NCBI GenBank assembly: GCA_021799485.1
Contig: JAJZAK010000009.1
Coordinates: forward strand, 2,850 to 66,849
Direction of reading: 5' to 3'
Length of the DNA stretch: 64,000 bases
From: a bacterium
GTDB taxonomy: Bacteria; Elusimicrobiota; Elusimicrobia; UBA1565; UBA9628
Position numbers and translations under genes: made by a program. Shown here one piece after another: positions 9,285-46,904 of the stretch; the first letter of the stretch is position 1; every line of letters starts with the position of its first letter. A model generated the notes under the pieces. The model was not told where the DNA came from. It saw only the letters and a program-made list of their open reading frames with translations, and made no database searches.

Positions 9285-10226
9285 CTAATCCGTCAGCTTG
9301 AAGACGAAGGGCTGGGCGATCTTGACCGGGACGGGGCCGGTTGCGTTTTCGGCGGGAGCGAAGCGCATGAGCCGCGCCACTTTTTCGGCCGCGGCGTCGA
9401 AATAGGGGCCCGCCGTCTTCGCGATGTCGATGTCGTGGATGAGCCCGTCGTCTCCGATGTGGAGGTAGAGGTTCACGGTCCCTTCCTTGCCTTCCCGGCG
9501 CTCGTTTTCCGGATAATAGCGCCGCAGGGCGGCTAGAATTTCATTGGCGTTGAGAAGGCGGGGCGGGATGATGATGGGGCCTCCGCCGCCGCCGGGAAGG
9601 CCGGAGCCTTTTCCGAAGGGCATTCCCAGTCCCGGGGCGTTGGAGCTCTTCGCCGATCCCGAGACGGGGCTCGCGACGCCCGCCGCCGGAGCGCCGGAAA
9701 TGAGGCTTTTCGCCGCGGCGGGCATGGCGGCTTGGTTGGCCGACGATTTCGGGGGCCGCGGCGTTGGCGTCGCAATGCGGGCCGGCGACGTTGGAGCCGG
9801 GAGCGTATGGACGGGAAGAGGCGCGGCAGGGACCGATGGCGCCGGAACGCGGGGGACGGATCGCGGCACGGGCGCCGCTGCTTTCGCCGGAGCCGCCTTG
9901 GGCGCGGGAACGGGCGCTTTGGCCGCCGGCGCCGCGGGAGCGGGCTTGGGCGCCTCGGGAACGCCCAGCGGGATGTTGGGTTTTTGGCCGAGTCCCTGCA
10001 TGCCGCCGATGCCGGGCCCGGGGATCGAGGGGATGGTCAGATCGACCTCCACCGGCGGAGGCGCCGCGGGCTGGGGCCACGGCATGAAAAGCAGCGCGGC
10101 ATGCAGGACGACGGAGCCCGCAAGACAGGAAAGAAAAAGCTGCTCGCGGCGGCTGACGCCGCGCCCGTCAAGAAAGCCCGATGCAGTCACCGTCCTGTCT
10201 TCTTCTTTAAGGAGACGAGACCTCAA
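9285..10226 (-). CDS. tonB: TonB family energy transducer (N-terminal TM anchor, Pro/Ala-rich spacer, C-terminal TonB domain)
   Basis: TM helix LFLSCLAGSVVLHAALLF, long PAPAAPAAKAPVPAPKAAP spacer, C-terminal TonB-like fold; downstream of exbB/exbD. Confidence 0.75.
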   Translation of the reverse strand: MRSRLLKEEDRTVTASGFLDGRGVSRREQLFLSCLAGSVVLHAALLFMPWPQPAAPPPVEVDLTIPSIPGPGIGGMQGLGQKPNIPLGVPEAPKPAPAAPAAKAPVPAPKAAPAKAAAPVPRSVPRVPAPSVPAAPLPVHTLPAPTSPARIATPTPRPPKSSANQAAMPAAAKSLISGAPAAGVASPVSGSAKSSNAPGLGMPFGKGSGLPGGGGGPIIIPPRLLNANEILAALRRYYPENERREGKEGTVNLYLHIGDDGLIHDIDIAKTAGPYFDAAAEKVARLMRFAPAENATGPVPVKIAQPFVFKLTD

Positions 10227-10608
10227 GCCCGACGCGGCTGAGCCCTGCTCCGCGGATCGCGTCGAGAACCCGGATCACGTCGCCGTAGCGCGCGCCCTTG
10301 TCCGCGGAAAGAGACACGCGCTGCCCCGGGGCGTTTTTGGCCTGAATCGAAAGAAAGCTTGAGAGCGCCGCCGGCCCGATTCTCCGGCCATGATAGAGGA
10401 CGTCTCCCGCGGCGTCCACGACGAGGTTGATCGCCTGGGGCGCCTCGCGGCTTGAGTGGGCCGCTTGGGGCAAAGCGACCTTGATCGCCCGGCGATGGAT
10501 GAGGGGAGCCGTGGTCATGAAGATGATGAGGACGACCAGCAGAATGTCGACCAATGGCGTGACGTTAATCCCCGTGATGGAGGCTTCGTTGCCGGGGACG
10601 GCGGCCAT
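10207..10608 (-). CDS. exbD: Biopolymer transport protein ExbD/TolR
   Basis: INVTPLVDILLVVLIIFM single TM + periplasmic ExbD fold; 133 aa. Confidence 0.85.
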   Translation of the reverse strand: MAAVPGNEASITGINVTPLVDILLVVLIIFMTTAPLIHRRAIKVALPQAAHSSREAPQAINLVVDAAGDVLYHGRRIGPAALSSFLSIQAKNAPGQRVSLSADKGARYGDVIRVLDAIRGAGLSRVGLEVSSP

Positions 10609-10614
10609 TGCAAT

Positions 10615-10692
10615 GGTGTCAGACTTTAACTTTTTGACTTTTCGAAATGATCATGACATCCGCAAAAAGTCAAAAAGTTAAAGTCTGACACC
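10615..10692. repeat. Perfect 28-bp inverted repeat (arms 10615-10642 and 10665-10692) with 22-nt loop; AT-rich; arm2 contains the exbB stop codon, arm1 ends 6 nt before exbD ATG
   Basis: ggtgtcagactttaactttttgactttt ... aaaagtcaaaaagttaaagtctgacacc read directly from sequence; exact reverse complement. Confidence 0.95.
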
Positions 10693-11283
10693 TCTTAGGG
10701 CCGAGCGGCAAAGGACGTCGGTTTCGGAGAGCAGGTCCCGCGTCTTTTTCTGGAAGAAGTTGAACGCGATGACGCAGGGAATGGCGACGAAGAGCCCCGT
10801 CGCGGTCGCGACCAGGGCTTGCGAGAGTCCCGACATGACCACCTCGGGCCCCGCCGAGGTGATCGCGAGGTCGTGGAAGGCCTTGATGACGCCCAGGACG
10901 GTGCCCAGGAGGCCGATGAAGGGGGCGTTGTTGCCGAGAGTCCCCAGAATCAGCAGGCGCTTTTCAAGGCCCGGCCGCTCGCGATTCGCGGCCTCGTTGA
11001 GGATCTCATCAATCTCTCCGCGGGCGCGTCCCGCCGAGAACGCGGCCCGAGCGACGCGCAGGGCCGCCCCGTCGCCGGCTTGGGCCGCCTTATCGATCGT
11101 TTTCAAGTCCGCGGAGCCCGATTCCAGCGCGGCGGCGAGCCTGTCGAGAATCTTATTTTCGCGATAGAGGACGATTCCTCGCTCGACGATGACCGCGACG
11201 GCCAGGATGGAGCACGCGAGCAATAAATAGATGACCCAATCGCCTCCGGAAAACGCCATGGCCGAGACCAGGGGGACATTCAT
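10678..11283 (-). CDS. exbB: MotA/TolQ/ExbB proton-channel protein
   Basis: Three TM segments, conserved LGTLGNNAPFIGLLGTVLGVIKAF and SQALVATATGLFVAIP motifs. Confidence 0.87.
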   Translation of the reverse strand: MNVPLVSAMAFSGGDWVIYLLLACSILAVAVIVERGIVLYRENKILDRLAAALESGSADLKTIDKAAQAGDGAALRVARAAFSAGRARGEIDEILNEAANRERPGLEKRLLILGTLGNNAPFIGLLGTVLGVIKAFHDLAITSAGPEVVMSGLSQALVATATGLFVAIPCVIAFNFFQKKTRDLLSETDVLCRSALRGVRL

Positions 11284-11295
11284 GGCGGGCTTCTT

Positions 11296-12204
11296 TTATT
11301 GGGTATTTCTTAGGCGTATCAGCGCCGAGCACAGCTCGGCGAGGACCACGGGATGGGTTTCCGTCTGAAGCTGGAGGAAAAGGAGTTGGTAGGTGTTTTG
11401 GTCCCCGATGAGCCCCAGGTAATGAGTCGCCATCGCTCGGACCAGCCAATCCGAGTTCTGATAATAGCTCAGAAGGATGGTCTTCCCGGTGGCGGCGTCT
11501 CCGAATTTCGCCAGGGCGTTCGCCGCGTAAATCTGGAGGATGGTCTCGGGATCCGATTGGGCGGCGGTGAAGACGGCTTGGTGAGCCGCGTCTCCGCCCA
11601 GCAGGGTCAGGGCTTCGATCGCCGCGAATCGCGCCGTCAAATTCGAGCTCGGGTTGAGCGCCTGCTGAAAAACCCCCAGGAATTGGGGGTCTTTCGTATA
11701 GGCCAGGGCGACGATGGCGGACGCTTGGATCTGCGGGTTCGTCGCCGATTGGGCGGTGTTTTGAAGGGCCGCCTGAAGGTCCAGGCGCTTGGCTCCGGCG
11801 AGGCCCTCCGTCAATAGGAAGCCCAGTTGGGTGTAGCGGGTCTGCAAGTTGTATCCATCGATCGTCGTCAGGGACGCAAGGTCCTGGAGAGAGGGATCGA
11901 GGGCATTGGCGCCGGTCGGGCGCTCGGAGGCGTGGTTCTGAAGCAGTTCGAGAAGGTCGGCGTCGATATTGGGGTTGAGGACGGCCTGGGGCGGTATCTT
12001 GAGGCGGGGAGCCGTGATGACGAGGGGGGCGAGCTCGTAGACGGGCTGAGGCGCGGCGGCGCCCTGCGCCGCCGCGCGCAGCGGAAGGCCGCAGAAGGCT
12101 ACGGAAAGCCATGGAAGGAGAAGGAAGGATGATGGCGACCAGCCCCTTGCGTCCTCCGTTGCCGTGCTTGGCCTTCTTTCGCCGTCCGTGACGTTCTTGA
12201 TCAT
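11296..12204 (-). CDS. Secreted HEAT-repeat (PBS-lyase-like) protein
   Basis: Signal peptide then repeated ~30-aa units (ASAIVALAYTKDP..., ARFAAIEALTLLGGD..., QIYAANALAKFGD..., VRAMATHYLGLIGD...) typical of HEAT/PBS-lyase repeats; paralog of the upstream gene. Confidence 0.6.
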   Translation of the reverse strand: MIKNVTDGERRPSTATEDARGWSPSSFLLLPWLSVAFCGLPLRAAAQGAAAPQPVYELAPLVITAPRLKIPPQAVLNPNIDADLLELLQNHASERPTGANALDPSLQDLASLTTIDGYNLQTRYTQLGFLLTEGLAGAKRLDLQAALQNTAQSATNPQIQASAIVALAYTKDPQFLGVFQQALNPSSNLTARFAAIEALTLLGGDAAHQAVFTAAQSDPETILQIYAANALAKFGDAATGKTILLSYYQNSDWLVRAMATHYLGLIGDQNTYQLLFLQLQTETHPVVLAELCSALIRLRNTQ

Positions 12205-13121
12205 AGAGGCTGCTGCGCCGTCGCGGTGGATTTCTTAGGAAAGAGCTTGAGCGCGGCCAAGCAGTATTCCGCCAGGAGAAAATCGTTCTGGCTCGCCTGG
12301 CTGATGAGGGAGACCATGGTGTCATAGTCCTGGGCCGAGCCGTAATTGCCGAGCGCCCGGGCCGCCATCGCCTGGACAACCCAGCTGCCGTTGTTTTGCA
12401 GGCTGTCGCGCAGGGCGGCGAGGCCGCGCTGGCTTCCAAGCCGCGCCATCATCGTCGCGGCGTAAATCTTGAGGATCGGGATATTCTCCTGGCGCATGTA
12501 GGAGTTGAGCATGTGGATCGCCGTCGCCGGGTGTCCCCACACGGCCAAGGCCTCCATGGCGCCAAAGCGCACGGAATGGTCGAAGAATTGAAGGGCCTGA
12601 TCGAACACGGGCTTGTCGTTGAGGTCTTGGCGCTGAGCGAGCAGGATCATCGCCGCCGAGCGCGTCTGGGAATTCTGATCATAATAGGCCGCGGTCTTGA
12701 GCTTCTTCTGGATCATCGGATCGGAGGTGTCGAAGGAGAAAGCCCTGGCCAGCGGGATCCCCAGGTGGAAGTAATAGTTTCTCAGGGCGAAGCCCTGGGG
12801 CGAGCCGACCGTGGCGAGGTCGCCTTCCGGCGTTCCGGCGGCGCCGCTCAGGCTGACCTGAAACGTGTCCTGGTTGTCGAAGAGCTGGAGAAGGGTTTGG
12901 AGGATTTGGGGGTCGACCGGCGTCTGGGCGGCGCCGGCCCCGGGGGCGCTCGCGCCGGGAGCTTGAGCGCCCGCGACCGTCGACGTCGATGCGGCCGCGG
13001 CCCCTACGGCGGAAGCCGATCCGGCGTTCGGGCCGCCCGCGGGCGGAAGCCCCACGCAAGCGCCGAGGCCTATGAGGATGGGGAACGCGAGGGCTTGGGC
13101 GGCTGCCTGGGGCTTGGGCAC
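12201..13121 (-). CDS. HEAT-repeat lipoprotein (lipobox LIGLGAC)
   Basis: Lipoprotein signal MPKPQAAAQALAFPILIGLGAC; repeats (RSAAMILLAQRQD, VRFGAMEALAVWGHP, KIYAATMMARLGS, VVQAMAARALGNYG); 4-nt ATGA overlap with downstream HEAT gene. Confidence 0.6.
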   Translation of the reverse strand: MPKPQAAAQALAFPILIGLGACVGLPPAGGPNAGSASAVGAAAASTSTVAGAQAPGASAPGAGAAQTPVDPQILQTLLQLFDNQDTFQVSLSGAAGTPEGDLATVGSPQGFALRNYYFHLGIPLARAFSFDTSDPMIQKKLKTAAYYDQNSQTRSAAMILLAQRQDLNDKPVFDQALQFFDHSVRFGAMEALAVWGHPATAIHMLNSYMRQENIPILKIYAATMMARLGSQRGLAALRDSLQNNGSWVVQAMAARALGNYGSAQDYDTMVSLISQASQNDFLLAEYCLAALKLFPKKSTATAQQPL

Positions 13122-15369: not shown

Positions 15370-15448
15370 TGCGGCATCCCGGCTTCCCTGGCCCATTTCC
15401 TCCACGACGAACATATCCCCCTCGTTGTATCGCTCAATCCCGGATAAT

Positions 15449-15516
15449 TGGTGACACCATACCTATTTCCAGCCCCCAAAACGGAGAAATCGGTATGGTG
15501 TCACTGGTTTTTTCCC
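15449..15516 (+). other. Second hairpin (13-14 bp stem, 28-nt C-rich loop) followed by T6 run; candidate small RNA 3' end or attenuator
   Basis: gtgacaccatacc ... ggtatggtgtcac then tggttttttccc; GATAAT -10-like hexamer at 15443-15448 just upstream. Confidence 0.3.
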
Positions 15517-15788
15517 GCAGGAAAGCCGCTTTTAATCGGGTTTTCTTGTTCGCATCGTTGTTCGCCCGGCGAACAGCTTTCCGGCCGATAAGCTTCTCTG
15601 TTCCGTCCATGGACTCCCGACGGAGCCTCGAACGCCGGCGCGGCGCTCACGCGCCGGCCTGACGACGAGAACGGCGCCTTCAACGGGTTTTGTTCCCCGT
15701 TGATACGCATGGTCCGTTGGGGGCGCAAGCCTCGAAAGGCCCTTCCAAGAATTGGCGGTTGAAGCGGAACATTTGTAATATCCATCGA

Positions 15789-43826: not shown

Positions 43827-44288
43827 GGAGTCTCCTCTTTGAAGAGTATTAAAAGTATCGCTAATTAAAAATACGGGATAATCAGCCGACAACATGTAGT
43901 TTATGATACCTGAGTATTTTAGTCAAGTTTTCGCATCGACTTGCGCAAGATGCCGCCTAATGCAGCCGCCTTAGGGTCCAAAACGCCGTCACGCCTGCCG
44001 CCGCCTTCATTAAACGGGCGCGGCTATCCCGGCCGATGGGGCGAGCGCTTCTTTAGCGACGCCGTCCTCGGGCACGCCTCTTTTCGGCATCAATCGGGGA
44101 GAGGCGGTCGAGACGGTCTTTTTTCTCGAAGCCCCCTGGCGGGCGATCATGTCCACTTAGGGAGGCGTTCCCGTGCGACGGCCTCGTGGACTCGGGGTCC
44201 TTGCGCGGCGCTGAGGGCCGCGACAGTCTTCAGGTTCAAGGCAGACCAGCCTTCCGAGAAGCTCGCGGACGGTGGTTGTGCGAGCGCG

Positions 44289-45176
44289 TTAAAAGAAGTT
44301 GGCGAACGACGATTCGGCGGACGAGAAGAAATTTTCGATGAAACTAGCTTTTTTGCTGATGTCGCCGAAGAAACCGGTGAACGCGCTTTGCAGGGGATTC
44401 TGTTCGGGTCCCTCGAGAGGGGACGAAGCGCCCGCAACTTGGTTATTAACCGGGGGAAATTGAAAATAATGCGCGGACTCCCCCGTCGAGCAAACGCCCA
44501 TCAGCGTCTCGGGGACCGGCACGGCAAAACCGCCGATGATCCCGCCGACAAAGGCCCGGCACCATCGGAACGGTTGAGGGAAGGCTCCCGGGGTGTTGGG
44601 AGGCCCATTGAACGACGACGCTCCGCCGGCCCCCGCAACCGTCATGCCCGGCGTCATGATGGGTCCCGAGGCTAAAAACCCACGCGGCACCGGACAACGC
44701 CCCATCACAATGTTCGGCTGGATGGAACCGGATGGATTCACGAACCAAGGAGATGGCTGCGCCATGGGGTAGATTGGTCCGACAATATGCGGACACCAGT
44801 CTCCGATTCCGATCTGCGGACAAACCCAATGTCCAAGGGTTTCACCAGAATTCTCCAGGTCGGCCGACATGGCCGGGTCGGGCGTCGGCTGGCCGCCGCC
44901 CGGGCAAGCGCCCGGCGGTTGGGGAAACGGGATGCAGTGGAATTTTGCGTTAATCGAAGCGCCGCCAAAGAAATTCAGGAAGCTAGCCGGAGCCGGGCCG
45001 GGGACTGCGATTTGGCCGGAGGGGCATTGGAAGCCTGCGACGGCGCCCCCAGAAGGCGGAAACGCCCCCATGTCTCCATCTGCGGCCGCGAAGCCTGCCG
45101 AGCCGACGGCAAGCATCCAGGCGGCGATCCACGTCAATACCTCTTTCCCAAACTTTGAACTGGCCTTATTATTCAT
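44289..45176 (-). CDS. Secreted Cys-rich protein, novel family (paralog A)
   Basis: Signal peptide; conserved core HCIPFPQPPGACPGGGQ...HWVCPQIGIGDWCPHIVGPIYP shared with downstream paralog; strong SD GGGAGGGGAGGA 8 nt upstream. Confidence 0.6.
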   Translation of the reverse strand: MNNKASSKFGKEVLTWIAAWMLAVGSAGFAAADGDMGAFPPSGGAVAGFQCPSGQIAVPGPAPASFLNFFGGASINAKFHCIPFPQPPGACPGGGQPTPDPAMSADLENSGETLGHWVCPQIGIGDWCPHIVGPIYPMAQPSPWFVNPSGSIQPNIVMGRCPVPRGFLASGPIMTPGMTVAGAGGASSFNGPPNTPGAFPQPFRWCRAFVGGIIGGFAVPVPETLMGVCSTGESAHYFQFPPVNNQVAGASSPLEGPEQNPLQSAFTGFFGDISKKASFIENFFSSAESSFANFF

Positions 45177-45224
45177 CAATCTATCCTCCCCTCCCGGTTT
45201 GCCAGAGAAGCCATGTTCTGTTGA

Positions 45225-46835
45225 TTAGAGTCCGCCAAAAAACCCCGCGAGATTGTTCCACGTAGCGTTTGTCGCGCCAAGACTCCCGCCAATAAACGGG
45301 GAGGCGGGAAATGTCCACGTTCCGTAAGTGCATTGTGAGCCCTGAGCACCATTGTGAGCGACCAGCATGCCTGGGAACTCTTTGGGAGCGGTCCACAGGT
45401 CGACGGATTCACCATTGAGACAAGACATGGCGGGATTGTCCGTCTCGAAGTCGAGGATTTGGCCGACATGGCGCGCATCCGAAAGACCTTCGATGGTGAT
45501 GTTTTTGACCCGAGTCATAAAGACCGACTGCCAAGTCCCCTGGTTGTCCCAGAGGCCGACGGCTCCGTCAGACTCCGCCATGCGACCGGAAACCTGCGAA
45601 GGAAGCGCAAAAAAATGCGTTTGTTCCCCGGCTATCCCGGACTGGCAGACTTCTATCTGCCTCAATATGTAGGTCCCTAGGACCCCCCCTGGGTGGTCAG
45701 TGCAATACTTGTACGGTTGAGGGAAAAGAGACTGCATTATGCCGATGGCGCCTCCAGCGGCTGCGGGTGCAGCCGCTCCCCCGAGCGCCGTTCCTCCCCC
45801 CGTGCAAGCGAATCCCGGAGGCAAGTTGCGGCAGTTTTGGCCACCAGGGCCTATCCCCTGAGATTGTTGTGGGAGACAATCTCCCATCACGAGTTGAGGT
45901 GCTTTCGTCGCTTCGCTTATGGCTCCAGAAATGCTGTTGATTATGCCGTTAGTTGGAACCGCGGCGCCGGCCGCAGGAATCGGGTACACGGGACCCACGA
46001 TGTGCGGGCACCACCCGCCGACTCCAACGGAAGGACAAACCCAATGCTCAACGACAAAGCCGCTCTGGCTGAGCGCGGCATTCATGTTCGGGTCAGGGGA
46101 AGCCTGGCCGCCGCCAGGGCAAGCCATCGGCGGCTGGGGAAGCGGGATGCAGTGGCGGGCGATGGAGACGTTCGCGCCGGCCTGATTGGCCGATTGGCTG
46201 ACCGCTCCGGCGGCGGGACCGTGGCCGTTCGGCGCCGCCGCGAATAAGGTTGGCATAGTAACCGGAATGGAAATCTCACCGGCAGGGCATGCAGAGCTAT
46301 TGCTCGTGGAACTGCCGGCCCCCGACTCCGCTATGGTCCCCGTGGGAGCGCTGGTCCCCGAACCCAACACGGAGCCTGAACCACTCCCGCCGTCGCTCGC
46401 TGGGCCGCCCGGATTGCGGATGCAGCGATTTCCCGCCGAGATCGTATCCGGAGGGCAATGAGGGCCACCACTTGTATAGCCGCCACTGTCGCCTCCAACC
46501 GGGGGGGAGCCCGTTGCGGGTGTGGAAGAATTCCCGCCGCCTCTAACAGGAGGAGATTCCTTCCCCGGGAAGCCGCCGTTTGTGGAGCCACTAGAGGAGC
46601 CGTCACCGCCTTGGACTTGGCCAACCGGCGTCTTGAGCAACGAGCGAAGCTGTTGGAACGTGGCCTCCGCCTGGGATGGTGTCATATAATAAACTTCGCT
46701 CGAAATATTGACCGGAGAATCCCGGCCTTGCCCCTCAGCGGCGGAAGCGACCACCACCATGTTGGCCGCAAATAAAAAAGCGGCTCCGGGCGCCGCGAAA
46801 TCTTTGAACAGCCTACACAAAATGGCGTCTTTCAT
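45225..46835 (-). CDS. Secreted Cys-rich protein, novel family (paralog B, with Gly/Ser-rich N-terminal extension)
   Basis: Signal peptide; core HCIPLPQPPMACPGGGQ...HWVCPSVGVGGWCPHIVGPVYP and second block FPQPYKYC...VCQSG...HFF aligned to paralog A; SD GAGGAGG. Confidence 0.6.
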   Translation of the reverse strand: MKDAILCRLFKDFAAPGAAFLFAANMVVVASAAEGQGRDSPVNISSEVYYMTPSQAEATFQQLRSLLKTPVGQVQGGDGSSSGSTNGGFPGKESPPVRGGGNSSTPATGSPPVGGDSGGYTSGGPHCPPDTISAGNRCIRNPGGPASDGGSGSGSVLGSGTSAPTGTIAESGAGSSTSNSSACPAGEISIPVTMPTLFAAAPNGHGPAAGAVSQSANQAGANVSIARHCIPLPQPPMACPGGGQASPDPNMNAALSQSGFVVEHWVCPSVGVGGWCPHIVGPVYPIPAAGAAVPTNGIINSISGAISEATKAPQLVMGDCLPQQSQGIGPGGQNCRNLPPGFACTGGGTALGGAAAPAAAGGAIGIMQSLFPQPYKYCTDHPGGVLGTYILRQIEVCQSGIAGEQTHFFALPSQVSGRMAESDGAVGLWDNQGTWQSVFMTRVKNITIEGLSDARHVGQILDFETDNPAMSCLNGESVDLWTAPKEFPGMLVAHNGAQGSQCTYGTWTFPASPFIGGSLGATNATWNNLAGFFGGL

Positions 46836-46874
46836 CGATATTCCTCCTCGACCCGCTTGCGAAGCAACGGGGAG

Positions 46875-46904
46875 ACTTTAGCCCCTGATCGCACGCCAAG
46901 TCAA
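46875..46904 (-). promoter_or_regulatory. Sigma70-like promoter for Cys-rich paralog B (TTGACT-N17-CTAAAGT)
   Basis: Read on minus strand upstream of 46835 start. Confidence 0.3.

Follow-up and report, generated by a model that had tools for sequence, protein, structure and literature searches.

The exbBD-tonB operon encodes a membrane motor of fixed stoichiometry. In an Elusimicrobiota-type lineage known from a metagenome-assembled genome (MAG), a long and perfect inverted repeat lies across the boundary between its exbB and exbD genes, within a 64-kb stretch of contig JAJZAK010000009.1 (assembly GCA_021799485.1, positions 2,850 to 66,849 of the forward strand; hereafter ‘the window’, whose own numbering is used throughout). 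The question posed by this locus is whether the hairpin is a regulator that evolved in place or a repeat that arrived from elsewhere. A first-pass annotation, made from the letters of the sequence, had proposed an ideal RNase III substrate or a device enforcing translational coupling and stoichiometry between ExbB and ExbD, and had also raised the idea of an insertion like a miniature inverted-repeat transposable element (MITE). We present evidence that the hairpin is most probably a copy of a non-autonomous palindromic repeat, similar to MITEs and to REPINs (hairpin-forming doublets of repetitive extragenic palindromes, REPs), inserted between exbB and exbD, with its effects on the operon as by-products.

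The exbB-exbD junction with and without the hairpin

The two arms of the inverted repeat (10615-10642 and 10665-10692) are 28 nt each and complementary at 28/28 positions, with 22 nt between them, both by reading of the sequence and by a repeat finder. The operon is on the minus strand, and in the exbB-exbD mRNA the 5′ arm of the hairpin (GGUGUCAGACUUUAACUUUUUGACUUUU, 10665..10692) holds the last four codons of exbB (G V R L) and its UAA stop (10678-10680); the gene ends GGT GTC AGA CTT TAA, with the UAA at positions 13-15 of the arm. After the 22-nt spacer, or loop (UGCGGAUGUCAUGAUCAUUUCG, 10643..10664), comes the 3′ arm (10615..10642), ending 6 nt ahead of the ATG of exbD. The geometry reported in the first-pass annotation, a perfect AT-rich repeat that takes in the exbB stop and sits 6 nt from the exbD start, is confirmed in every respect.

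Within the 64-kb window the arm 28-mer, with up to 3 mismatches allowed, occurs at just these two sites (0/100 shuffles had any match), and the runner-up inverted repeats measure 16 nt if perfect or 19 nt at 95%. GC content is 36% in the 78-nt element against 63.7% for the window. The RNA hairpin alone has a predicted folding energy of -47.5 kcal/mol (z = -12 versus shuffles), and in the predicted sense-strand fold the 28 Watson-Crick pairs are continued by a U-G pair and 5 further pairs within the spacer. Self-complementarity inside a single arm is confined to GTC-A-GAC (3 bp), and neither arm forms a convincing small hairpin of its own.

Orthologous junctions were compared in relatives from the two closest lineages in the protein collection, which have the same synteny. 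In the nearer lineage (L010-L014; ExbB identity 95%, about 91% nucleotide identity), exbB ends ...LRRPA-TAG and is separated by 6 nt from an exbD that starts with GTG; in the other (L015-L018; ExbB identity 85%, nucleotide identity about 77-85%) it ends ...LRRAA-TAG, with a gap of 5 nt to a GTG start. The hairpin is thus missing from relatives at both ~91% and ~80% nucleotide identity. BLAST alignments of the relatives to the window break off at 10697 and pick up at 10607, and a lineage-specific segment of 89 nt (10608..10696, minus strand) stands in for 23 nt (GCGCCGGCCCGCATAGCCGTCCG) of the ~91% relatives. From that segment come a new exbB tail, GVRL-TAA (the protein now ends ...LRGVRL), and two bases, A and T, of the start codon of exbD. 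The original stop and spacer are gone, as are two bases of the GTG, and the distance from exbB stop to exbD start has grown from 6 to 69 nt. Because the more distant relative also has the short junction, that state is ancestral and the hairpin derived. What the comparison shows is a recent, lineage-specific acquisition after the split from the nearest sequenced relatives.

The genes on either side are undamaged. ExbD has 94.7% amino acid identity to the nearest relative, with codon differences of 24 synonymous versus 7 non-synonymous, and the corresponding counts for exbB are 33 versus 9; these codons point to purifying selection on the two intact genes. Homologues of ExbB differ in their C-terminal tails in any case.

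Assemblers typically end or misjoin contigs at inverted repeats, and a palindrome like this one might have been created by assembly or sequencing, for instance as a fold-back chimera. Several short contigs of the same strain (L002, L006, L007 and L009) do break or turn chimeric precisely at the palindrome; in L002, a MEGAHIT contig, nt 1-48 derive from the interior of exbD (window about 10406-10452), with the join at a shared GACGT. The same sequence nevertheless recurs in a JGI metagenome, in two ENA MEGAHIT assemblies and in four Logan runs, whose contigs match at 100% over as much as 10.6 kb; the strain is present in the SRR227461xx and JGI 3300039716 samples. At least five of the contigs, produced by three assembly pipelines from several sequencing runs, pass uninterrupted through the hairpin with different flanks on each side. 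Since independent assemblies carry identical sequence, and homologous hairpins are found in unrelated assemblies, the chance that the hairpin is an artefact is negligible.

A dispersed family of palindromic repeats

By exact-word searches the element seemed an orphan. The arm 21-mer GTCAGACTTTAACTTTTTGAC had no match in genome, viral and metagenome contig collections, and the 20-mer GTGTCAGACTTTAACTTTTT had none in metagenome contigs, a weak negative as that collection evidently lacks the JGI sample holding this contig. The family was exposed by a termini-plus-gap pattern alone, GTGTCAGACTT-N{42,72}-AAGTCTGACAC, the one strict pattern by which the family sample was drawn. It returned 29 sites at 27 loci in 16 assemblies, where chance would give ~1 (596e9 positions x 31 spacings / 4^22), and had no match in viral contigs. 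All 29 sites are palindromic well past the specified bases, with stems of 13-43 bp. The search for further copies suggested by the first-pass annotation failed for exact words and succeeded, with 29 hairpins, for the pattern, which is a practical lesson of this element.

According to record titles, copies are carried by at least seven phylum-level groups, a count based on MAG record labels of which some, or some bins, may be wrong. The labels are Elusimicrobia/Elusimicrobiota (four assemblies, plus JAJYFI), Myxococcaceae, Syntrophobacteraceae, Binatia (two), Gammaproteobacteria (two assemblies), Acidobacteria, Planctomycetaceae, Isosphaeraceae and one unclassified bacterium. JAJYFI (GCA_021790955.1), titled ‘bacterium’, was counted as Elusimicrobiota because it is the same genome as L015; its exbB-exbD junction is empty, yet it has copies at two other loci (L027 and L033). 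Two MAGs labelled Syntrophobacteraceae (CAYOJC; L036 369-4068) and Binatia (JBGQBP; L037 1-2819) share DNA that is 93-95% identical and that takes in one and the same copy of the repeat as well as a LigD gene. The identity reflects either a binning or label conflict or a recent transfer, and it counsels caution on the number of phyla.

The window copy has 79-81% identity over 78-87 nt to copies in the Elusimicrobiota MAGs JAJYFI and JBGFSC. A covariance model built from 22 copies, with the window copy left out, matches the window element (10611..10696) at 74.1 bits (E 4e-17), on either strand alike. The first covariance model added four copies with variant heads, in which the two arms had changed together (GTCATAC/GTATGAC and GGTGCCAGGC/GCCTGGCACC). 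At least five copies were found in each of JBGFSC BA1A30 Bin.75 and JADYZO SJ574, three in JAIBBR SSF57 and two in JAJYFI; some genomes are dense, with three copies in 6.1 kb of L025. Neither short-word BLAST nor the covariance model found diverged copies in the window or in the exbBD loci of the relatives. The window element, searched by BLASTN against phages and plasmids, and two family copies, searched against plasmids, met no match or matches at chance level. Against Rfam, the element drew sub-threshold matches to generic microRNA hairpins alone, the entire window contains no tRNA, no rRNA and no Rfam family at gathering score, and 18 family loci gave nothing but a thiamine pyrophosphate (TPP) riboswitch elsewhere in L039. 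A literature text search for the head motif described below met primer coincidences only; absence there and from Rfam is no proof of novelty.

These results bear directly on the proposal that the hairpin evolved here as a dedicated regulator, serving strict ExbB-to-ExbD coupling or stoichiometry or forming a programmed RNase III site. Its attractions are that the exbB stop lies inside the stem with the exbD AUG 6 nt after it, that the stem is perfect and very stable, and that both genes have been kept intact. In 16 genomes from several phyla, however, hairpins of this family stand beside unrelated genes, both of the nearest relative lineages have a junction of 5-6 nt and no hairpin, the composition is AT-rich and foreign, and the spacer is not conserved among family copies. 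The first-pass annotation was right that exbD has no free Shine-Dalgarno (SD) sequence, but this is not diagnostic, because exbD lacked one in the ancestral junction too, as do most genes near by: an SD is missing at exbB, tonB, secA, the HEAT-repeat genes upstream and the exbD of relatives, and is seen just at groES and groEL. As an account of the origin of the hairpin, a dedicated coupling device or RNase III site is unsupported and largely refuted, and we consider it very unlikely. The alternative idea of an AT-rich, MITE-like insertion is backed by the empty junctions in relatives and by the dispersed family at unrelated loci in 16 other genomes. Among the observations that the first-pass annotation had named as decisive, scattered copies and absence from close relatives were both found, and target-site duplications were not. 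What falls away at this locus is the claim of a special regulator; in its place is a dispersed repeat that rebuilt the end of one gene and the start of the next with the operon unbroken.

The architecture of the family combines a shared outside with a variable inside. A 12-nt head, GGTGTCAGACTT, and its mirror, AAGTCTGACACC, are near-invariant and common to the phyla (in the window, 10681..10692 read on the minus strand, and 10615-10626, minus strand), and the interior is specific to genome or lineage yet paired. Paired cells make up 92.6% of the family alignment (shuffles, 69.7%; slid controls, 27-42%), and 16/27 pairs show changes on both sides (compensatory changes). G-U cells number ~10/594, roughly a fifth of the non-Watson-Crick cells; this is about the neutral level for single changes, and so gives no sign that an RNA stem, rather than a DNA palindrome, is under selection. 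Copies within one genome have similar arms, and their spacers all differ in length and sequence. No distant inverted pairs of heads were seen in the 27 loci.

Two kinds of repetition occur in and around the copies. A head module of 22-29 nt (e.g. AAAAGGTGTCAGACTTATTTTC) may form a tandem of two or three units in one arm or in both, producing nested clusters like bacterial interspersed mosaic elements (BIMEs), as at L025 2492-2616, L032 1747-1838, L045 1532-1615, L030 1272-1400 and L041 1503-1625. Short tandem duplications, in units of 6-16 nt, start from the terminal (G)ACACC in 15/58 flanks (26%) against 2.6% of random positions; examples are L025 5410-5440, L037 2700-2850, L033 5400-5500 and L040 938-960, and L033 and L037 have them on both flanks. 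The latter are duplications at the foot of the hairpin, and are not target-site duplications.

In 15/33 copies the stop codon of a plausible gene lies inside the element or no more than 30 nt away, versus 10% when positions are drawn at random from intergenic DNA; these counts depend on crude gene calls. Many copies lie between co-directional genes, as in the window, and at L027 and L040 an open reading frame (ORF) also terminates inside the element. The gammaproteobacterial copies consist of terminal inverted repeats (TIRs) of ~20 nt flanking a non-palindromic core; A/T runs adjoin them, and the genes on their two sides are convergent.

A preference of this sort for gene ends would suit a host function, in which a widespread cellular protein, or a factor that processes RNA, binds the head, and the hairpins, far from being selfish repeats, have been domesticated at 3′ ends as mRNA stabilisers, as attenuators or terminators, or as signals of the uptake type. 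On this view the message of exbB, upstream of the hairpin, would be stabilised by it, as happens with REPs in Escherichia coli. A head that is near-invariant in at least seven phylum-level groups around a variable interior, the enrichment of copies just 3′ of stop codons, the gammaproteobacterial copies whose A/T-run flanks between convergent genes recall bidirectional terminators, and the tandem head modules and short flank units, which resemble multiple binding sites, all agree with such a function. But the lack of G-U enrichment argues against selection on an RNA stem, the Elusimicrobiota copies, that of the window included, have no U-run, and no Rfam family matches. Presence is also patchy, with close relatives differing in the loci that carry copies, and a host factor common to such distant phyla, yet used just in scattered MAGs, is improbable. 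We therefore judge a host function to be unlikely.

A further candidate is a classical MITE, an internally deleted derivative of an insertion sequence (IS) of the DDE type, with TIRs starting GGTGTCAGACTT, mobilised in trans with target-site duplication. The ~20-nt TIRs around a non-palindromic core in the gammaproteobacterial copies speak for it. The family as a whole is small, AT-rich, non-coding and intergenic, with conserved TIRs and a variable interior, which are typical MITE features (PMC10969869), and the window copy is well within the <500 bp of MITEs, at 78-86 nt and 36% GC with perfect 28-nt arms and the 12-nt termini present in all family copies. Against this, no direct repeats flank any of the 29 copies save trivial matches of 2-3 nt, the window site is a replacement of 23 nt with no duplication, and no parent IS or transposase was found in the 27 loci of up to 8 kb. 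Conserved arms with all-different spacers within a genome are instead the pattern of REPINs (PMC3337134), and a classical MITE origin seems improbable.

Other candidate identities were rejected. An intrinsic terminator has a G+C-rich stem with a U-run after it; here A+U pairs dominate the stem, the sequence that follows is AUUGCAAUGG (sense) or UCUUAGGG (antisense), and a terminator scan was silent at the element. Integron attC sites have RYYYAAC / GTTRRRY cores and extrahelical bases and occur in arrays next to intI; here the termini are GGTGTCAGAC / GTCTGACACC, stems are perfect, and single copies lie between housekeeping genes with no integrase nearby. Likenesses to the Tn3 inverted repeat (GGGGTCTGAC, 8/10 positions), IS1 ends, the Neisseria DNA uptake sequence (GTCTGA) and boxA (CUUUAAC) extend to a few bases only, outside the conserved part, and were not used.

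Insertion into the operon and its likely effects

Under the favoured reading, a copy of the palindromic repeat family entered the tight ancestral junction (TAG, 5-6 nt, GTG) and replaced 23 nt, as the comparison with relatives shows. The family would probably spread in trans, through an enzyme encoded elsewhere that recognises the head or the hairpin. Without target-site duplications, a mechanism of the HUH type, as employed by the tyrosine transposases associated with REPs (RAYTs), fits better than a DDE transposase.

Several results weigh against this reading. The window's own genome offers one copy in the 64 kb scanned. At the window site itself there is no target-site duplication, the change being a replacement and not a clean insertion, and the event could have been recombination or repair with foreign DNA instead of transposition. 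In a search for a mobiliser (all-against-all BLASTP of the ORFs in the 27 loci, with Pfam on the recurrent neighbour ORFs and on 149 further ORFs), no recurrent transposase or recombinase was found among neighbour ORFs in loci of up to 8 kb, and the recurring families were housekeeping ones only. Y1_Tnp was absent from the recurring families of 149 neighbour ORFs and from ten scanned window ORFs, in general scans that were not a test for linkage to RAYTs. The arms are not clearly small palindromes, in which they differ from REP units. Finally, the effects on expression set out next (coupling, lower ExbD and RNase III cleavage) are plausible ones drawn from folding predictions and general knowledge.

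With no U-run and no promoter-like site in the hairpin (a promoter scan found none in the element), transcription is likely to read through it. From the footprint of a ribosome, one with the UAA in its A site would be expected to unwind almost the whole 5′ arm, freeing the 3′ arm and the exbD AUG; otherwise that AUG would sit 6 nt from a stem of -47 kcal/mol and be accessible mainly just after exbB had been translated. The ancestral coupling over 6 nt may thus have been replaced by hairpin-gated coupling over 69 nt. Since the distance from stop to start grew from 6 to 69 nt, output of ExbD is probably lowered relative to ExbB. The motor has the stoichiometry ExbB5-ExbD2, and less ExbD would be tolerable if fewer ExbD than ExbB are needed. 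RNase III acts on roughly 20 bp or more of uninterrupted double-stranded RNA, and the duplex of 28-30 bp in the predicted fold is long enough. We infer that these effects are by-products tolerated by selection and not the reason for the element, because both genes have stayed intact under purifying selection.

Three smaller features of the hairpin were considered. An 11-codon mini-ORF on the minus strand, MIISKSQKVKV (AUGAUCAUUUCGAAAAGUCAAAAAGUUAAAGUCUGA), has its AUG in the loop, runs through the 3′ arm and ends in UGA 10 nt before the exbD AUG; as a real gene it was dismissed as probably a coincidence, the loop being unconserved in every other copy. A Fur box in the spacer, matching GATAATGATAATCATTATC by eye at 10/19 positions, was dismissed as chance. 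The SD-like UAAGAGGUG at the 5′ foot of the stem, considered as half of a split ribosome-binding site, is half buried in the stem and, when unfolded, 84 nt from the AUG; for these reasons, and because the downstream genes at other copies have SDs of their own, it was rejected.

Taken alone, the feature in the window is ordinary, a repeat insertion straddling a stop codon. It does offer a natural before-and-after pair, the window lineage and its relatives with 6-nt junctions, for the effect on coupling of a 28-bp stem laid over a stop. Less ordinary is the family, which is built like a REPIN, conserves its head across distant phyla, repeats head modules in tandem and has duplications at the hairpin foot; we did not find it described. 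The foot duplications and tandem heads hint at nick-and-copy or at multi-site binding, unlike classical MITE or RAYT models. A bolder proposal, which we advance tentatively, is that this is an undescribed, horizontally spreading, REPIN-like replicator whose head GGTGTCAGACTT is read by one enzyme across at least seven phyla, mostly in subsurface and soil MAGs, and that in this lineage a copy now serves as the exbB stop / exbD start junction and imposes hairpin-gated coupling. The pairing of REPIN-like architecture with one head across phyla would, if confirmed, challenge the lineage-bound, vertical view of such repeats and point to a mobilising enzyme.

The operon itself has the order HEAT-HEAT-exbB-exbD-tonB, all on the minus strand: two HEAT-repeat genes open it (12201-13121 and 11296-12204; together 11296..13121), followed by exbB (10678..11283; MotA_ExbB, 201 aa), exbD (10207..10608; ExbD, 133 aa, with its ATG start where relatives have GTG) and tonB (9285..10226; TonB_C) as the final gene. 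A promoter-like site lies upstream of the HEAT genes at 13156-13128. The HEAT pair directly upstream of exbB-exbD-tonB is an arrangement kept in the relatives L010 and L015.

Elsewhere in the window, about 370 nt past the groEL terminator (15384-15751) are missing from the ~91% relative, L010 having 49 nt in their place, and may be a second lineage-specific insertion. Inside them is a hairpin of 19 bp (15451-15469 / 15486-15504; GGTGACACC...GGTGTCAC) followed by a T-run, and this hairpin (15451-15504) gave the sole other match to the family model in the window, a weak one (14-16 bits, E 0.05-0.3). Further along, GC content is lowered to 0.59-0.60 at 43900-46900, a region that adjoins sufB and a suf-type ABC ATPase gene and whose three sizeable ORFs (43941-44675 on the plus strand, 44289-45179 and 45225-46835 on the minus strand) have no Pfam match.

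Comparison with known systems

REPINs are REP doublets that form hairpins and are mobilised by RAYT tyrosine transposases (Bertels & Rainey; PMC3116915, PMC3337134). They consist of two inverted units with spacers that are never identical but always hairpin-forming, and show variable spacing, complex clusters and, in some cases, A/T-run flanks (PMC3337134). The present family is alike in its hairpins of ~65-115 nt, its two inverted conserved units, and its spacers that vary in length and sequence yet form hairpins. Like REPINs, its copies are extragenic, lie at the 3′ ends of genes, reach a high density in some genomes and form tandem or inverted clusters; A/T runs lie beside the hairpin in some lineages, and neither kind of element leaves a target-site duplication. 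It differs in that the GTAG-type head is absent and that one 12-nt head is common to at least seven phylum-level groups. REPIN-RAYT systems, in contrast, are said to be specific to lineages and inherited for the most part vertically (bioRxiv 10.1101/2022.05.22.493013). The architecture matches the description of REPINs, and is a better fit to it than to the MITE model of TIRs plus target-site duplication (PMC3337134, PMC10969869). Inside the operon the element acts as a REPIN or MITE would. Membership among the REPINs is not established, as the arms are non-palindromic and a head common to phyla contradicts the lineage-specific, vertical picture.

Bacterial MITEs (Correia/CREE of Neisseria, ERIC, RUP and QMITE2) share with this family a small, AT-rich, non-coding body, TIRs, stable mRNA hairpins and positions that are intergenic or in 3′ untranslated regions, operons among them. 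RNase III cuts Correia transcripts where their TIRs are paired (PMC2649163, PMC10969869), and ERIC changes the stability of flanking mRNA segments (PMC10969869); these are the kind of side effect to be expected of the exbB-exbD hairpin. Here, unlike in those families, neither a target-site duplication nor a parent IS was found, and the element is essentially one stem, with none of the internal core of Correia or ERIC.

REPs and BIMEs within E. coli operons reportedly stabilise mRNAs of the malE-malF type, and REPs near stop codons are said to stall terminating ribosomes (the names attached to this work being Newbury et al. 1987 and Liang, Rudd & Deutscher 2015). The likeness lies in an intercistronic hairpin right after a stop codon, or here overlapping it, in a polycistronic mRNA, and differential expression of the cistrons and interference with termination would be expected in the same way. 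E. coli REPs are G+C-rich and imperfect, of ~35 nt, whereas the present stem is A+T-rich and perfect over 28-30 bp in a genome of 64% GC.

In structure-mediated coupling, as in secM-secA and the MS2 coat-replicase pair, a stem hides the start of the downstream gene until the ribosome on the upstream one opens it. The exbB-exbD junction resembles these systems in having the upstream stop inside the stem and a downstream AUG, with no SD, beside the other arm. Those arrangements are conserved and selected; here the stem is a recent insertion into a junction where the ancestral coupling was by 6-nt spacing.

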